A DNA stretch of 64,000 nt from Alphaproteobacteria bacterium (GTDB taxonomy: Bacteria > Pseudomonadota > Alphaproteobacteria > GCA-2746255), in contig OZ252220.1 of NCBI GenBank assembly GCA_965249135.1, positions 928,001 through 992,000 on the forward strand, given 5' to 3'. The first letter of the stretch is position 1; each line of letters begins with the position of its first letter. A program made the position numbers and the translations under genes. Below are positions 1,172 through 64,000 of the stretch, in pieces. The notes under the pieces were generated by a model that was given only the letters and a program-made list of their open reading frames with translations, did no database searches and was not told the origin of the DNA.

Positions 1172-2428
1172 ATGACCCGATCGCACCTCGTTGCCGGTTT
1201 AGGCGCCCTGTCCGTTGCCGGCCTCATCGCCGCCGCGCCGGCCTTCGCCCAGACGAGCGCGGAACGGCTGGAGCAACTGTTGCACGAGCTTCAAACCCAG
1301 TTGAAATTCGAGTCCGAGGACGGGAACTTCAAGGCCTGGATACACGGGCGCCTCCTGGCCGATTACGCCAATTACGAGGAAGACAAGTCCAAGCTGGACG
1401 ACGACACCGAATTCCGCACTGCGCAATTCAGCCTGAATGGCACGCTCTATAGGGACTGGGTTTTCAAGGCCCAAGTCGATGTCGCGAGGGAAACTCCCAA
1501 CGTCAAGGACCTGTACCTCAGATATAATTTCAAGCCCCACTCGATCACCGTCGGCCAATTCAAACAACCGTTCGGCCTCGAACGGCTGACGAGTTCGAGA
1601 TTCATCACCTTCATGGAGCGCGCCTTGCCGAGCGCCTTCGCCATACCCCGCCTGATCGGTTTGGGCTACCAGACGCACGGCCCGAACTGGTCGTTTGCGC
1701 TGGCGGGCGGCGGATCCGACGTCTCCAGTAAAATCTCCCACCAAGGGGACGAAGGCTATTCGGTGACGAGCCGTGTTCACTTCGCGCCCTTAAGCGAAAA
1801 GACCGAAAATGTTCACCTTGGCGCGGCCTTGTCGTACCGGAAACTAAACGATGATACGTTTCGTTTCCGGCAACGTCCCGAATCGCATGTGACTTCCGCT
1901 CGATTCGTGGACACGGGCAATATCGCCAGTGCCTCCGACCTATTTCTGTATATCCTGGAGGCGGCCACCGTCTGGGGTCCTTTCTCGCTCCAGGGTGAAT
2001 ACACGAATGCAACCGTCGAACGGGAAGCCGGCTTGTCCGATGTGGATTTCTATGGCTGGTACGGTTACGTGAGTTTCTTTCTCACACCGGGCGACCACCG
2101 CAGCTACGACCCCAAGAAAGGCGCCTTCGGTCGCGTCAAACCGAAGCGTCCTTTCTCCGAAGGGGGGGGATACGGCGCCTTGGAACTCGGCGTTCGGTAT
2201 AGTGGCATCCTGCTGACGGACGAGGACATTTTGGGTGGTGGCGAACGAAACCTGACGGTTGGTTTGAATTGGTACGCAACGTCACACATCCGGTTCATGC
2301 TGAACTACATCAATGTAAACAACGACAACAACGCGACGGGAAACTTAGCCAATCTTCTTCCGCAATTCACGTCGGCAGCCAGTGACGACCCACACATCAT
2401 TCAACTACGGGCCCAGTTCGACCTCTAG
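1172..2428 (+). CDS. Phosphate-selective porin, OprO/OprP family
   Basis: Signal peptide, GQFKQPFGLE-x-LTSSR-x-ITFMER motif, GLNWY, aromatic C-terminus; Pho boxes upstream. Confidence 0.88.
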   Translation: MTRSHLVAGLGALSVAGLIAAAPAFAQTSAERLEQLLHELQTQLKFESEDGNFKAWIHGRLLADYANYEEDKSKLDDDTEFRTAQFSLNGTLYRDWVFKAQVDVARETPNVKDLYLRYNFKPHSITVGQFKQPFGLERLTSSRFITFMERALPSAFAIPRLIGLGYQTHGPNWSFALAGGGSDVSSKISHQGDEGYSVTSRVHFAPLSEKTENVHLGAALSYRKLNDDTFRFRQRPESHVTSARFVDTGNIASASDLFLYILEAATVWGPFSLQGEYTNATVEREAGLSDVDFYGWYGYVSFFLTPGDHRSYDPKKGAFGRVKPKRPFSEGGGYGALELGVRYSGILLTDEDILGGGERNLTVGLNWYATSHIRFMLNYINVNNDNNATGNLANLLPQFTSAASDDPHIIQLRAQFDL

Positions 2429-2456
2429 GAAGCGAAGCGCAACCAATCATGCTTCG

Positions 2457-2984
2457 TCACTCGCCTTCGAACTCGAAAAGGGTGAGCACCTTTTGCCCCA
2501 TCGCTTCGAGGCGCGCCTGGCCACCCAGGTCGGGCAGGCCGATCACGAAGCTTGAGCCCACGATTTCACCGCCGGCCCGCTCGATCAGCTGAATGGTGGC
2601 GGCCGCCGTGCCGCCGGTCGCGATCAGGTCATCGACGAGAAGAATCCGATCCCCTTTCTCGATCGCATCCGCATGAATTTCGACGCAATCCGTCCCGTAT
2701 TCGAGCTCGTATTCCTGGCCGAGCGTCTTCCATGGAAGCTTTCCCTGCTTGCGGACCGGCACGAAGCCGATGGAAAGCTGATGGGCGACGGCGCCGCCAA
2801 GGATGAACCCCCGGGCCTCGATGCCGGCGACCTTGTCGATGCGCACCCCGGCATGCGGCTGGACGAGCTCATCGACGGTCTTGCGAAAGCCGACGGCATC
2901 CTGCAGCAGCGTCGTGATGTCCCGGAACAGAATGCCCGGCTTCGGATGGTCCGGGATGGTGCGGATCTTCGCTTTGATGTCCAT
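2457..2984 (-). CDS. apt: Adenine phosphoribosyltransferase
   Basis: [30 protein letters not shown] motif [10 protein letters not shown]. Confidence 0.97.
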
Positions 2985-3152
2985 GGGGGTTGCGGCTCCT
3001 TTTCCTTAAAACTCAGCGCACCGAAGAAGAGCGGCGTATACGAAGTGTAGAAGCTCGCGGGCCCGAAGCCAACCGGAGGAACGCTATCCAAGCACTTGAT
3101 TCACTGTCATAAAACGCTTTCCGAGCGGCGTTGGGAGGATTAGGGTGCCGTC

Positions 3153-4574
3153 ATGCGGCACGATCGAAAGGCGAAGATTGTCGCCACCCTTGGGCCCGCC
3201 TCGGACGATCCGGGTACGATCCGCGCGCTTGCCGAGGCCGGCGTGAGTGTCTTTCGGTTGAACTTCAGCCACGGCACCCATGCCGATCACCGGCGGCGCT
3301 TTGCCGCCATTCGAAGAGCCGAAAAATCCGTCGGCCGTCGCCTCGGCACGGTGGCGGATCTTCAGGGACCGAAGCTCCGGCTCGGCGAATTCAAGGACGG
3401 CCACGTCACCCTCGAAGCGGGCAAGCCCTTCCGTCTCGATCTTTCGAAGCGGAAAGGAGACGCGGCGCGCGCCCCCCTTCCCCACCGCGAGGTGTTTGCG
3501 GCCCTGAAATCGAAGATGGACCTGCTGCTCGACGACGGCCTGATACGCCTGCGTGTCCGCAAATGCGGCCCTGATTTTGCGAACACCCTCGTCGTTACCG
3601 GCGGTTCGTTGAGCAACCATAAGGGCGTCAACGTGCCCAACGTCGAATTGCCGATCTCGCCTCTGACGGCAAAGGATCGCGCGGATCTGGGGGCCGCCCT
3701 CAAAATGGGGGTCGATTGGATCGCGCTCTCCTTCGTCCAGCGGCCAAGGGATATTCGAAAGGCACGTAAATTGATCGACGGCAAGGCGGCCGTCATGACG
3801 AAACTCGAAAAGCCGGCCGCGATCGAATATCTCGACGAAATCGTTCACCTGTCGGATGCGATCATGGTGGCCAGGGGCGATCTTGGCGTCGAGCTGCCGC
3901 CGGAGGACGTACCCAGCGTGCAAAGGCAAATCATCCGCGTCTGCCGCCAGGCGGGCAAGCCGGTCGTCGTCGCCACCCAGATGCTGCTGTCGATGGTGGG
4001 GGCGCCGACGCCCACCCGGGCCGAGGCCTCCGACGTCGCCACCGCCGTCTACGAAGGGGCGGATGCGGTGATGCTGTCGACGGAAACGGCGGCCGGCGAC
4101 TATCCGGTCGAAGCCGCGAAGATGATGGACCGCATCATCGCCCGCGTCGAACAGGATGCCCACTACCAGGCGATCATCGATGCGGAAAGCGCCGCCCCTG
4201 AGGCGACGGAGGCCGACGCGATCACGGCCGCCGCCCGGCAGGTGGCGCGCACGATCTCGGCCGCCGCCATCGTCACCTATACGACGTCCGGCTCGACGAC
4301 GCTGCGCGCCGCCCGGGCGCGGCCCGACGTGCCCATTCTGTGCTTGACGACCCGGCCCCAGACGGCGCGGCAATTGACCCTTGCCTGGGGCGTGCACAGC
4401 GCCGTCAGCGAAGAAATCCGGGACTTCAACGACATGGTCGAGAAGGCGGAGCGGGTGGCGCGCCAGGAAGGCATCGCCAAGCCGGGCCAGAAGATCGTGG
4501 TGACGGCCGGCATGCCCTTCGGCACGCCGGGCAGGACGAACATTCTTCGCATCGCCACCGTGAAGAAACGCTAA
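3153..4574 (+). CDS. pyk: Pyruvate kinase
   Basis: KIVATLGPAS, RLNFSHG, DLQGPKLR, MVARGDLGVE, ATQML, PTRAE. Confidence 0.97.
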   Translation: MRHDRKAKIVATLGPASDDPGTIRALAEAGVSVFRLNFSHGTHADHRRRFAAIRRAEKSVGRRLGTVADLQGPKLRLGEFKDGHVTLEAGKPFRLDLSKRKGDAARAPLPHREVFAALKSKMDLLLDDGLIRLRVRKCGPDFANTLVVTGGSLSNHKGVNVPNVELPISPLTAKDRADLGAALKMGVDWIALSFVQRPRDIRKARKLIDGKAAVMTKLEKPAAIEYLDEIVHLSDAIMVARGDLGVELPPEDVPSVQRQIIRVCRQAGKPVVVATQMLLSMVGAPTPTRAEASDVATAVYEGADAVMLSTETAAGDYPVEAAKMMDRIIARVEQDAHYQAIIDAESAAPEATEADAITAAARQVARTISAAAIVTYTTSGSTTLRAARARPDVPILCLTTRPQTARQLTLAWGVHSAVSEEIRDFNDMVEKAERVARQEGIAKPGQKIVVTAGMPFGTPGRTNILRIATVKKR

Positions 4575-52050: not shown

Positions 52051-52098
52051 GTTAATGGTCCGTTAAGAGCCTAAGACGAAAGTTTAAAAATTCCTTAA
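52051..52098. promoter_or_regulatory. Two CtrA boxes upstream of the PleC/DivJ-like kinase
   Basis: GTTAA-tggtccg-TTAA (52051-52066) and TTAA-aaattcc-TTAA (52084-52098). Confidence 0.7.
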
Positions 52099-61951: not shown

Positions 61952-63324
61952 ATGGTTCGGATCCTCCCGGCGGCGCTTGGACTCTTCCTTCTGTTCCTCC
62001 CCGTCTTCCTCCTTGCCCAGGACAGGACGCAGCCAAGCGAGCCGCCTGAGGCGGTTCAAGAACTGCTAGGCCAGTTGTTTACAGCCACCCCACGCCTTCG
62101 TAATGAGGCGCTCGAGGCGCTCAAGCAACGGGGCAAGACGGACGTGGTGCCCGCCTTGATCCAGGCCCTGCGTTTCGTTCCCGACGAAGAGGCCATCAAC
62201 GCAACCCTGGAAGCACTGGTCGGCGAACGGTCCGGCACGAAGTGGCCCGACTGGATGTTGTGGCAGGAGGCCCATCCCGAGATCGAGCCCTTCGCCGGCT
62301 TCGATGCGTTCAAGGCCGAGGTCATGGCCACCATCGATGAGAACTTCCGCCTCTTTCTCAGACCCGGCATCAAGCACGACATACGTCTCGAAGAAATCGT
62401 CTGGAGCGGTGTCCGCAAGGATGGGATCCCGACCTTGATCAACCTCACCCATACCGGCGCGGCGGAGGCCGGATACTTAGACGACGACGAGTTGGTCTTC
62501 GGTGTCGAGATCAACGGCGACGCCCGTGCCTATCCCTTGCGTATCCTCGACTGGCACGAAATGTTCAACGACGTGGTTGGCGCGTGCCCGTGGCGCGTGC
62601 CTATTGCACGCTCTGTGGCTCCGGCATCCTCTACGAGACCCTTCTTCCTACCCGGGCGGAACCCTTCATCTTCGGATCGTCGGGCTTCCTCTACCGGTCG
62701 AACAAGTTGATGTACGACGACCAGACCCATTCGCTCTGGAACCAGTTCACGGGCCGTCCGGTCGTCGGCCCCCTCACCGGCTCCGGGATCGAGCTCAAGG
62801 TGCGGCCGGTGGCGATCACCAACTGGAAGGACTGGTGGCGACGCCACCCAAAGACCAAGGTCCTGTCGCTGGACACCGGATACGACCGCGACTACACGCC
62901 CGGACGCCCCTACGGCGCGTACTTCGACAGCCCCGATCCGATGTTCCCTGCCCTCGTCCCGGACAAGCGGTTGCAGCCCAAAGACTATGTCTTCGCCCTG
63001 CGTGCCGGCGGCCACGAAAAAGCATGGCCGTTGACCGCCTTCGAAGATGCCACGGTGATCAACGATTCCGTGGGCCCGCTCGACGTCGTGTTGATCGGCG
63101 ACGCCGCCACCCGGACCGTCCGCGCTTACGGCGCCGACGACCGCGACTTTGCGGCAGTCGCGGACCAGCCGGACCGCGTCATCGCCGACGGCGAAACCTG
63201 GAAGGTGGAGGAGGATGCGTTGGTCGGGCCTCGGGGACAACGGCTTGAGCGCCTGGCGGGTCACATTGCTTATTGGTTCGCATGGCGGGGATTTAAGCCC
63301 GAGGCACCGCTCTACGGCGACTGA
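61952..63324 (+). CDS. DUF3179 protein with HEAT-like N-terminus; frameshift near 62580
   Basis: GVRKDGIP, ARAYPLRILDWHE, YCTLCGSG, SGFLYRSN, SLWNQ, YWFAW. Confidence 0.85.
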
Positions 63325-63456
63325 GGTGTGCCGGTCCCTTCGCCAAGTTAAAACCAGGGGTCAAGATCCCCTTGGGGTGGGATCCGCGCTTCGGTCAAAG
63401 GCCGCAGACGATGGTCGTCAGCCGTTGGGCAGAGTCCCTTTCAAAGTTCCGGTCTG

Positions 63457-63472
63457 GTTAACAATTCATTAA
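63457..63472. promoter_or_regulatory. CtrA box
   Basis: GTTAA-caattca-TTAA. Confidence 0.55.
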
Positions 63473-63648
63473 TGAATGCAACCTACCGTTGTGAGTAGGC
63501 CCCACAAAACAACTCGCAGGCACGGAGAGGGCTTGTGAGCTTGTCGTGGGCGGATCGGGGCGCTTGTCCATTCGGTTTGGCAAACTCCGCACACACGGCG
63601 TCGCCTTCAAGTACGGGGACACGTTCTTAAACTCCCTCTCCAGGGACC

Positions 63649-63741
63649 ATGGAAATGTCAGCCAGCAGCAATCCACAGCAACAGCAGCAACGGCAACTCC
63701 AGCAGCCCCAGCAGCAGCAGCCCCAGCAGCAGCAGGAATAG
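63649..63741 (+). CDS. Glutamine-rich micro-ORF (candidate leader peptide)
   Basis: MEMSASSNPQQQQQRQLQQPQQQQPQQQQE*; 16 of 30 codons are Gln, mixed CAG/CAA; purine-rich AGGGA just upstream. Confidence 0.55.
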   Translation: MEMSASSNPQQQQQRQLQQPQQQQPQQQQE

Positions 63742-63875
63742 GCTTCGCGGCGGAAACCAGAGCGGCAGGGGCCGACCTTAGGATAAGCGGCGACGCTTTC
63801 CCGCGACCGAGAACAGAAACGTCTGGATGAAGACTTAAGCGGATGCCTTTTCCCTAAGGGGCATTCACGCGTTCG

Positions 63876-63901
63876 CGCCGCTGCACCGGCGGCGTTTTTT
63901 T
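63876..63901 (+). terminator. Rho-independent terminator / candidate attenuator
   Basis: CGCCGCTG-cac-CGGCGGCG followed by T7. Confidence 0.7.
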
Positions 63902-64000
63902 GCTTTCCTGGCGCGTCCGGATGCCCCTTTACTCTGCCGCGGGTGTGAGCCTTCGATGACCTATTGTTTGGGAATTGCGACGTGCGAGGGCCTCATCTGT

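Follow-up and report, generated by a model that had tools for sequence, protein, structure and literature searches.

A glutamine-rich open reading frame upstream of an Anbu gene

We analyzed a window of 64,000 nucleotides (nt) from an alphaproteobacterial contig (OZ252220.1, positions 928,001 to 992,000 of the forward strand), near the end of which a short open reading frame (ORF) rich in glutamine (Gln, Q) lies upstream of a gene for the peptidase Anbu. The first-pass annotation of the window had described an ORF of 30 amino acids (aa) with sixteen Gln codons, CAG and CAA mixed, ending in TAG, and we found it as described at 63649..63741 on the plus strand (MEMSASSNPQQQQQRQLQQPQQQQPQQQQE; 13 CAG and 3 CAA), inside an intergenic gap of 632 nt. 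The second ATG, at 63655 (28 codons and the TAG), is the likely start rather than the ATG at 63649, because it aligns with the ATG of five relatives described below (L029, L109, L110, L111 and L115) and lies 8 nt from the Shine-Dalgarno sequence AGGGA (63642-63646), which precedes the ATG at 63649 by 2 nt. In a six-frame scan of the whole genome (2,118,282 bases; at least 12 Q per 22 residues) this ORF was the sole match, and Gln makes up ~3.2% of the codons in the long ORFs of the same genome. Within it, Tandem Repeats Finder (TRF) detected arrays of 6-nt and 15-nt period, including a perfect 15-nt tandem duplication of a PQQQQ unit (63700-63735, plus strand, 2.4 copies); slippage has therefore shaped part of the tract, as the first-pass annotation had cautioned. 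The same repeat length, with no variants, was found in the DNA contigs of three runs, which is weak evidence since all come from one sample that is possibly the source. The run of CAR codons (R, A or G) is predicted to be unstructured as RNA, and Pfam returned nothing above cut-off for the window peptide.

The GC-rich hairpin with seven T residues that had been noticed downstream was recovered by hairpin scan and folding as an intrinsic terminator at 63875..63901 on the plus strand (hairpin 63875-63895, 9-bp stem with 7 G-C pairs, loop of 3; T7 63895-63901), and it begins 133 nt past the stop of the ORF. Folding also places a first stem-loop at 63839..63870 on the same strand, and the two hairpins together have a minimum free energy (MFE) of -29.3 kcal/mol (z -2.78; 2 of 200 shuffles as good).

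The co-oriented gene that the first-pass annotation had expected past the end of the window proved to be Anbu, a widespread relative of the proteasome. Its ATG is at 63957, so that the window holds its first part (63957..64000, plus strand), and the gene, encoding 246 aa, continues past the window to L001 2897. The protein matches the Protein Data Bank (PDB) chains 5loy (4e-35), 5lox, 5nyw, 5nyj and 5nyf, with E-values from 4e-35 to 7e-27, and scores 22.5 bits against PF00227, for which the cut-off is 22.4. Across an alignment of 23 Anbu sequences T2, D18 and K32 are invariant, corresponding to the N-terminal Thr after Met and the equivalents of Asp17 and Lys33, and the gene reads as intact.

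Co-oriented relatives in low-GC genomes

A scan for Anbu proteins with one genome per species gave 80 loci and a metagenome scan gave 55, for a total of 135. Among the 80 genome loci, a plus-strand Gln-rich ORF just upstream was present only in the closest one, L029 (66% identity, a low-GC genome), and among the 55 metagenome loci only in four close ones, L109, L110, L111 (68% identity) and L115 (65%), which have ~42% GC. In these five polyglutamine (polyQ) loci the ORF is co-oriented with Anbu, its stop lying 215-260 nt before the Anbu ATG, and 259-260 nt in the layout that they share; it has 94-99 codons, of which 71-75% are Gln (68-74 Gln, CAA and CAG in about equal number), and it follows a leader of ~148 nt. 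In L029, a masked run of N breaks the reading of the frame. In all polyQ copies the stop codon follows immediately on the Gln run, and no in-frame TAA or TAG occurs inside the 94-99 codons, although GAR and AAR codons do. Comparison of L111 with L115 revealed 30 synonymous Gln changes, 38 identical codons and 19 non-synonymous ones, so the Gln frame is kept with CAA/CAG exchanges, as had been asked of a conserved peptide at the outset. TRF assigns the L115 polyQ gene a period of 33 nt (11 residues). Of the Anbu residues conserved between the window and the low-GC loci, 51% are encoded by different codons, which indicates that neutral sites are saturated; the repeat at the same place is therefore not a leftover of recent common descent, and the Gln-rich ORF has been kept across saturating divergence and a shift in GC content from 60% to 42%.

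We noticed several further features of these loci. In place of a plus-strand terminator-like site between ORF and Anbu, which was found in none of the three relatives scanned (L029, L109 and L111), the relatives carry a hairpin of 17-19 bp without a U tail right after the polyQ stop (z -5.2 and -5.8; L029 2257-2298, L109 1757-1798, L111 1140-1183), with no counterpart in the window. Its arms are CUG-rich and CAG-rich and are kept through G-U wobble changes, and the CAG run within the ORF could be an alternative partner of the CUG arm. A palindrome, GATTGT-N4-ACAATC, is conserved ~40 nt before the Anbu ATG (L109 1960-1975, L111 about 1345-1360) and is absent in the window; it may be an operator or a hairpin. 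A long minus-strand ORF rich in Ala and Val in L029 was set aside as a by-product of the CAR repeat, as in L111 it stops after 22 codons. The metagenome-assembled genome (MAG) L029, the carrier of the closest cassette, is labeled Enterobacteriaceae while its Anbu nests among alphaproteobacterial sequences, which suggests either horizontal transfer of the cassette or a mislabeled bin.

Opposite-strand genes in the sister clade

Scanning both strands uncovered small Q-rich genes in three further loci, L039, L047 and L062, on the opposite strand and transcribed away from Anbu. The encoded proteins have 70 aa (L047, counted from an internal Met), 97 aa (L062) and 79 and 67 aa (L039), the last two because L039 (a Sneathiella MAG, 2056-4383) contains two tandem cassettes, each with the Q-rich gene on the minus strand and Anbu on the plus strand. 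The divergent starts in L039 are separated by 143 and 145 nt, and its two Anbu copies are 88% identical; in L047, with the start derived by hand at 2356, the distance to Anbu is 144 nt. The four sister-clade proteins align well with one another, third-codon-position changes dominate among their genes (38 vs 25 and 13, for example), AGGAG or AGGGA occurs ~8 nt before the ATG in all three whose upstream region was examined (L039a, L039b and L062), and own-strand intrinsic terminators follow 21-47 nt past the stops in both L039 copies and in L062. These genes thus carry the sequence signatures of protein-coding genes.

The sister-clade proteins contain an 11-residue repeat, and by our own reading both Q-rich groups share a unit of the form R-Q-x-hydrophobic-Q..QQ.Q. 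The L039 protein is modeled in the ESM Atlas as a single helix of great length (predicted local distance difference test 0.74), and a feature search of the ESM Atlas gave no usable match. Pfam had nothing above cut-off for five Q-rich proteins, and a protein homology search with the L115 polyQ protein or the L039 Q-rich protein found nothing, as composition correction probably removes such matches. From synteny, composition and the 11-residue period, we infer that the two Q-rich subfamilies are homologous.

Association with one Anbu subclade

A small Q-rich ORF flanks Anbu in nine of nine loci of the subclade (the window, L029, L109, L110, L111, L115, L039, L047 and L062). With a threshold of 11 Q per 30 residues on both strands, open frames were found in 10 of the 135 loci, and eight of these are subclade members; the other two, L034 and L155, are the only ones among 127 non-subclade loci and are marginal long frames, not small ORFs adjoining Anbu. 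Lowering the Q threshold added spurious GC-rich frames only. In an IQ-TREE search with 87 Anbu rows (a filter of at least 200 aa and no X dropped one of 88 rows; L115, the second L039 paralogue and 48 distant metagenome loci are not included), the five polyQ-linked rows formed a clade with a Shimodaira-Hasegawa-like approximate likelihood-ratio test (SH-aLRT) value of 97, and together with L039, L047 and L062 they formed a clade of eight with SH-aLRT 98. The window Anbu lies 0.82 changes per site from that of L111. Across the scanned loci, the association of small Q-rich ORFs with this Anbu subclade is exclusive, in either orientation.

The cassette is sporadic in its distribution, being present in one of six genomes in the order of the window and in two of 39 in the order of G042. 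Neither the intergenic DNA nor this Anbu was found in the five other genomes of the genus, which are all those available of the order, and no synteny was seen there.

The sole conserved neighbor of this Anbu branch is the Q-rich small gene. According to the part of Fuchs et al. (2017, PMC5666114) drawn on here, the canonical Anbu operon consists of ATP-grasp, Alpha-E, transglutaminase and Anbu, the substrates and interactors of Anbu are still unknown, and no activator has been found. Searches of five subclade genomes (G000 and G041-G044; completeness is known for G000 only, 98.75%) found neither Alpha-E (PF04168) nor CP_ATPgrasp_2 (PF14403), and Alpha-E is present in both outgroup genomes; Transglut_core (PF01841) was not found in G000, and the Pup ligase/Dop family (PF03136) in none of the same five genomes. 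This neighborhood points to a role of the Q-rich protein as a dedicated partner, as we read it. A complex prediction with two Anbu copies and the 30-aa peptide, run without controls, gave no informative result (score 0.01).

Leader, 3' elements and neighboring genes

A putative 5' leader of the small gene (63488..63654, plus strand, 167 nt) was delimited by alignment with the relatives, whose leaders its last ~39 nt, including the Shine-Dalgarno sequence, resemble. Its local alignment to L111 scored 26, equalled by 1 of 300 shuffles, and the alignment to L109 was not significant in the same test. The reverse holds for a 3' block of ~46 nt (63810..63855, plus strand) similar to the spacer of the low-GC relatives, which scored 24 against L109 (equalled by 1 of 300 shuffles) and was not significant against L111. 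A small hairpin over the Shine-Dalgarno region was no better than shuffles, and in the predicted minimum-energy fold of the whole putative transcript 63488-63503 pairs with 63858-63872, just before the terminator. RNAalifold gave covariation terms of -0.93 and -0.54 kcal/mol for six leaders and six spacers, which represent effectively three lineages; the predicted post-stop hairpin of the low-GC loci is the only element for which we claim conserved structure. Rfam 15 contained no family at gathering score for 63200-64000, the best of nine sub-threshold matches being anti-hemB (19.7 vs 49.5 bits).

Upstream, a TTAA-N7-TTAA box at 63458..63472 (plus strand), overlapping a 14-bp palindrome at 63464-63477, lies ~16 nt ahead of where similarity to the leaders of the relatives begins. 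A pattern count gave four matches in the window (7191, 52052, 52084 and 63458) vs 0.11 expected, and two of the copies stand 32 nt apart at 52052-52098. We take this pattern to be CtrA-box-like, and the region may be the promoter or operator region of the small gene. No match to the sigma-70 consensus was found at the small gene, and a sigma-54 promoter inspected by eye was rejected as its spacing does not fit.

Beyond Anbu the next gene is msrA, and upstream a DUF3179 gene ends at 63324. The latter seems to be split by a frameshift (61952-63324), one ORF (61952..62710) covering HEAT_2 and DUF3179 positions 1-60 and an overlapping ORF in another frame (62584..63324) covering DUF3179 profile positions 59-291; a pseudogene, a sequencing error and a programmed shift are all conceivable. 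The genome of the window has two tRNA-Gln genes and encodes GatB and Hfq, and no glutaminyl-tRNA synthetase (GlnRS) was detected above cut-off in it.

A proposed small protein gene paired with Anbu

We propose that the window contains a small, separately transcribed gene for a Gln-rich protein that is functionally paired with an orphan Anbu, as its substrate or regulator, and that is shortened here to 28 aa; we consider this somewhat more probable than its opposite. The transcript would start near 63488, run through the ORF at 63655-63741 and end at the terminator at 63875-63901, which would belong to the small gene itself. Since the sister-clade genes have terminators of their own, the window terminator can be explained without attenuation. 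The window ORF would be a shortened member of a family of small Gln-rich proteins, whose other members have 67-99 aa, an 11-residue repeat and a predicted long helix. The Q-rich gene and Anbu would be inherited as a two-gene cassette within one Anbu subclade, and in the polyQ clade the small gene would have been flipped into the orientation of Anbu. The protein would serve as a dedicated partner of Anbu, either as a substrate or as a helical regulator or inhibitor. We infer both transcription and translation of the ORF in its own genome and a physical or enzymatic link between its product and Anbu.

In a more specific version, the Gln-rich protein, a nitrogen-rich polypeptide made on ribosomes, would be the natural substrate of this Anbu clade, cleaved or processed, for example for glutamine release under nitrogen limitation, and in these genomes would stand in for the peptide-making ATP-grasp and Alpha-E partners. 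We regard this version as rather unlikely; if it is true, a physiological substrate of Anbu would be known for the first time, and a polyglutamine protein of bacteria would have a protease dedicated to it.

The Q-rich small proteins beside Anbu appear to form an undescribed family, which we propose here and delimit by a length below 100 codons, at least 16 Q in 30 residues, a distance of less than ~300 nt from an Anbu gene of the eight-row subclade, a Shine-Dalgarno sequence, and a 3' hairpin or terminator of its own. The window ORF has fewer than 100 codons, at least 16 Q in 30 residues, a Shine-Dalgarno sequence, its own terminator and a subclade Anbu nearby. Proteins with 57-75% glutamine are rare in bacteria. 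Full-text literature searches, whose coverage does not include subscription journals, yielded no description of a Gln-rich gene beside Anbu and no report of a highly Gln-rich bacterial protein linked to a protease.

Several observations weigh against the proposed pairing. The window copy has 28 aa, with room for barely two 11-residue repeat units, and has prolines at the hydrophobic positions of its relatives, so the same long helix is impossible for it and it could be a decaying relic. Triplet repeats are expected to change length in frame, which makes the kept frame weak evidence of selection, and since none of the six frames is closed by (CAR)n, an open frame proves nothing by itself. Members of each Q-rich subgroup align clearly; between the polyQ ORFs and the sister-clade proteins, hmmsearch detected no homology (no match at E<=1) and hhalign gave a forward score equal to that of the reversed control. 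The non-coding DNA of the window and that of the low-GC loci are weakly similar, with two of the four pairwise tests described above at 1 in 300, and an nhmmer model of leader and spacer built from the five low-GC loci without the window found nothing in the window's own genome. Finally, the tree is a quick search, and roughly three or four independent lineages underlie the association.

In genomes that differ widely, one Anbu branch is accompanied by this small gene, in either orientation and even as a tandem duplicate. This is a clue ready for the bench, and it would offer a first candidate partner of Anbu that can be tested. For annotation, the lesson is that a terminator behind a mini-ORF rich in one amino acid does not by itself make an attenuator.

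Alternative explanations

The same locus could be a decaying remnant, in which the small gene has collapsed by repeat contraction to a functionless 28-codon stub and Anbu is left alone or is itself on the way out. The size of the window ORF agrees with this explanation (28 aa vs 67-99 aa in all nine other copies), as do the replacement of the periodic hydrophobic residues by prolines, the recent slippage indicated by the perfect 15-nt duplication, the frameshifted look of the DUF3179 neighbor and the failure to find the cassette in five other genomes of the genus. However, the ORF retains its start codon, Shine-Dalgarno spacing, frame and stop, the strong two-hairpin 3' end is kept (z -2.78), and Anbu is intact with T2, D18 and K32; the identity of the tract in the contigs of three runs points the same way, though weakly, given the single and possibly source sample. 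We hold decay to be improbable, yet a serious rival.

The first-pass annotation had interpreted the ORF and terminator as a glutamine-sensing attenuator. Under this model, the supply of charged Gln-tRNA, made through GatCAB, would set the speed of translation and thereby decide between a stop at 63875-63901 and read-through into Anbu, with a Rho site on the unstructured CA-rich RNA taking the place of the terminator in the relatives. The parts of this proposal that concern the genes stood up: the ORF is co-oriented and directly upstream of Anbu in six of six polyQ-clade loci, no property of the peptide other than its Gln richness is strongly conserved, CAA and CAG being freely exchanged, and in the window ORF and Anbu are separated by a strong terminator. 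Its premise that Gln-tRNA is made by transamidation also agrees with the genome (no GlnRS at cut-off, GatB present, two tRNA-Gln genes). In addition, the part of PMC5666114 used here cites Hervas 2008 for the induction of Anbu in nitrogen-limited Pseudomonas putida, and this induction and the conserved Gln richness are why the idea keeps some weight.

The mechanism, however, found no support. In an equilibrium model, the pairs of the terminator formed with probabilities of 0.89-1.0 under every ribosome mask applied (none, the stop region, 63655-63724 and 63655-63745). The proposed alternative pairing does exist, since AGCGGCG at 63786-63792 is complementary to CGCCGCT at 63876-63882, but this 7-bp duplex is weaker than the terminator (-12.4 vs -15.0 kcal/mol) and begins 45 nt past the stop, beyond the reach of a terminating ribosome, and no coupling to ribosome position was found. 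In the three relatives scanned (L029, L109 and L111) no plus-strand terminator was detected, and the relatives' ORFs of 94-99 codons with 68-74 Gln, behind a 148-nt leader, contrast with the ~14-30 codons of known leader peptides. The sister-clade genes are divergent from Anbu in four of four cases, an arrangement in which a leader peptide cannot work, an argument that counts only if they are homologous, as we suppose. The full-text searches found no paper on leader-peptide attenuation by Gln codons, and none that combined a glutamine riboswitch with ATP-grasp. Overall, we judge Gln-sensing attenuation at this locus to be distinctly unlikely.

Still less likely is a function at the RNA level, as an Hfq-binding small RNA (sRNA) or sponge. 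The motif bound by the distal face of Hfq is (A-R-N)n, which the CAG/CAA run becomes when read in another register as AGC/AAC, and a class II-like hairpin with a U-rich terminator would complete such an RNA. The CAR run is predicted to be unstructured, the 3' end in the window is a stem-loop with a U7 terminator, the genome encodes Hfq, and every one of the weak sub-threshold Rfam matches is to an sRNA that bears a terminator. Against this, no Rfam family reached its gathering score (19.7 vs 49.5 bits at best), conservation extends to the ATG, the Shine-Dalgarno region and the stop that closes the run, the 94-99 codons include GAR and AAR but neither TAA nor TAG in frame, no U-tailed terminator was found in the relatives scanned, and the sister-clade genes are complex sequences with a coding-type substitution pattern.

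A chance CAG microsatellite unrelated to its neighbors can hardly be credited. TRF does find 6-nt and 15-nt arrays, and other genomes of the class show weak matches to CAG repeats, but the genome has no second stretch of this kind, and the closest Anbu homologues are preceded by the same element in the same position in spite of saturated synonymous sites and the GC shift.

Comparison with known systems

Amino-acid leader-peptide attenuators of the trpL, hisL and pheL type resemble the locus in having a short, co-oriented ORF rich in one amino acid upstream and, as in the window, an intrinsic terminator between ORF and gene. The locus differs from them in that no ribosome-coupled alternative structure was found in the equilibrium model, no such terminator was detected in the three relatives scanned, the ORFs of the relatives run to 94-99 codons, the copies of the sister clade point away from Anbu, and the gene downstream encodes a peptidase, not an enzyme of Gln biosynthesis. 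Glutamine riboswitches, which we take to be the glnA RNA (RF01739) and Downstream-peptide (RF01704) families, would likewise tie a short downstream ORF or nitrogen genes to glutamine, but neither family had a match in 63200-64000, even at E<=10.

With the canonical Anbu operon the locus shares the peptidase family and a conserved neighborhood that hints at a dedicated peptide substrate, whereas the Alpha-E and CP_ATPgrasp_2 components were not found in the five subclade genomes searched, nor Transglut_core in G000. The actinobacterial pup-prcB-prcA arrangement, in which Pup, a small disordered protein, is encoded directly upstream of the proteasome genes, offers another parallel. Pup has a C-terminal Gln and turns helical on binding its partner. 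The Q-rich copies described here consist of 57-75% Gln and end in K, E or L, with no GGQ or GGE, and the Pup system differs further in that PF03136 was found in none of the five genomes searched and the context here includes no alpha subunit or AAA ATPase. In both systems, however, a gene of fewer than 100 codons for a non-globular protein adjoins, and is co-inherited with, the gene for a beta subunit of the proteasome fold.

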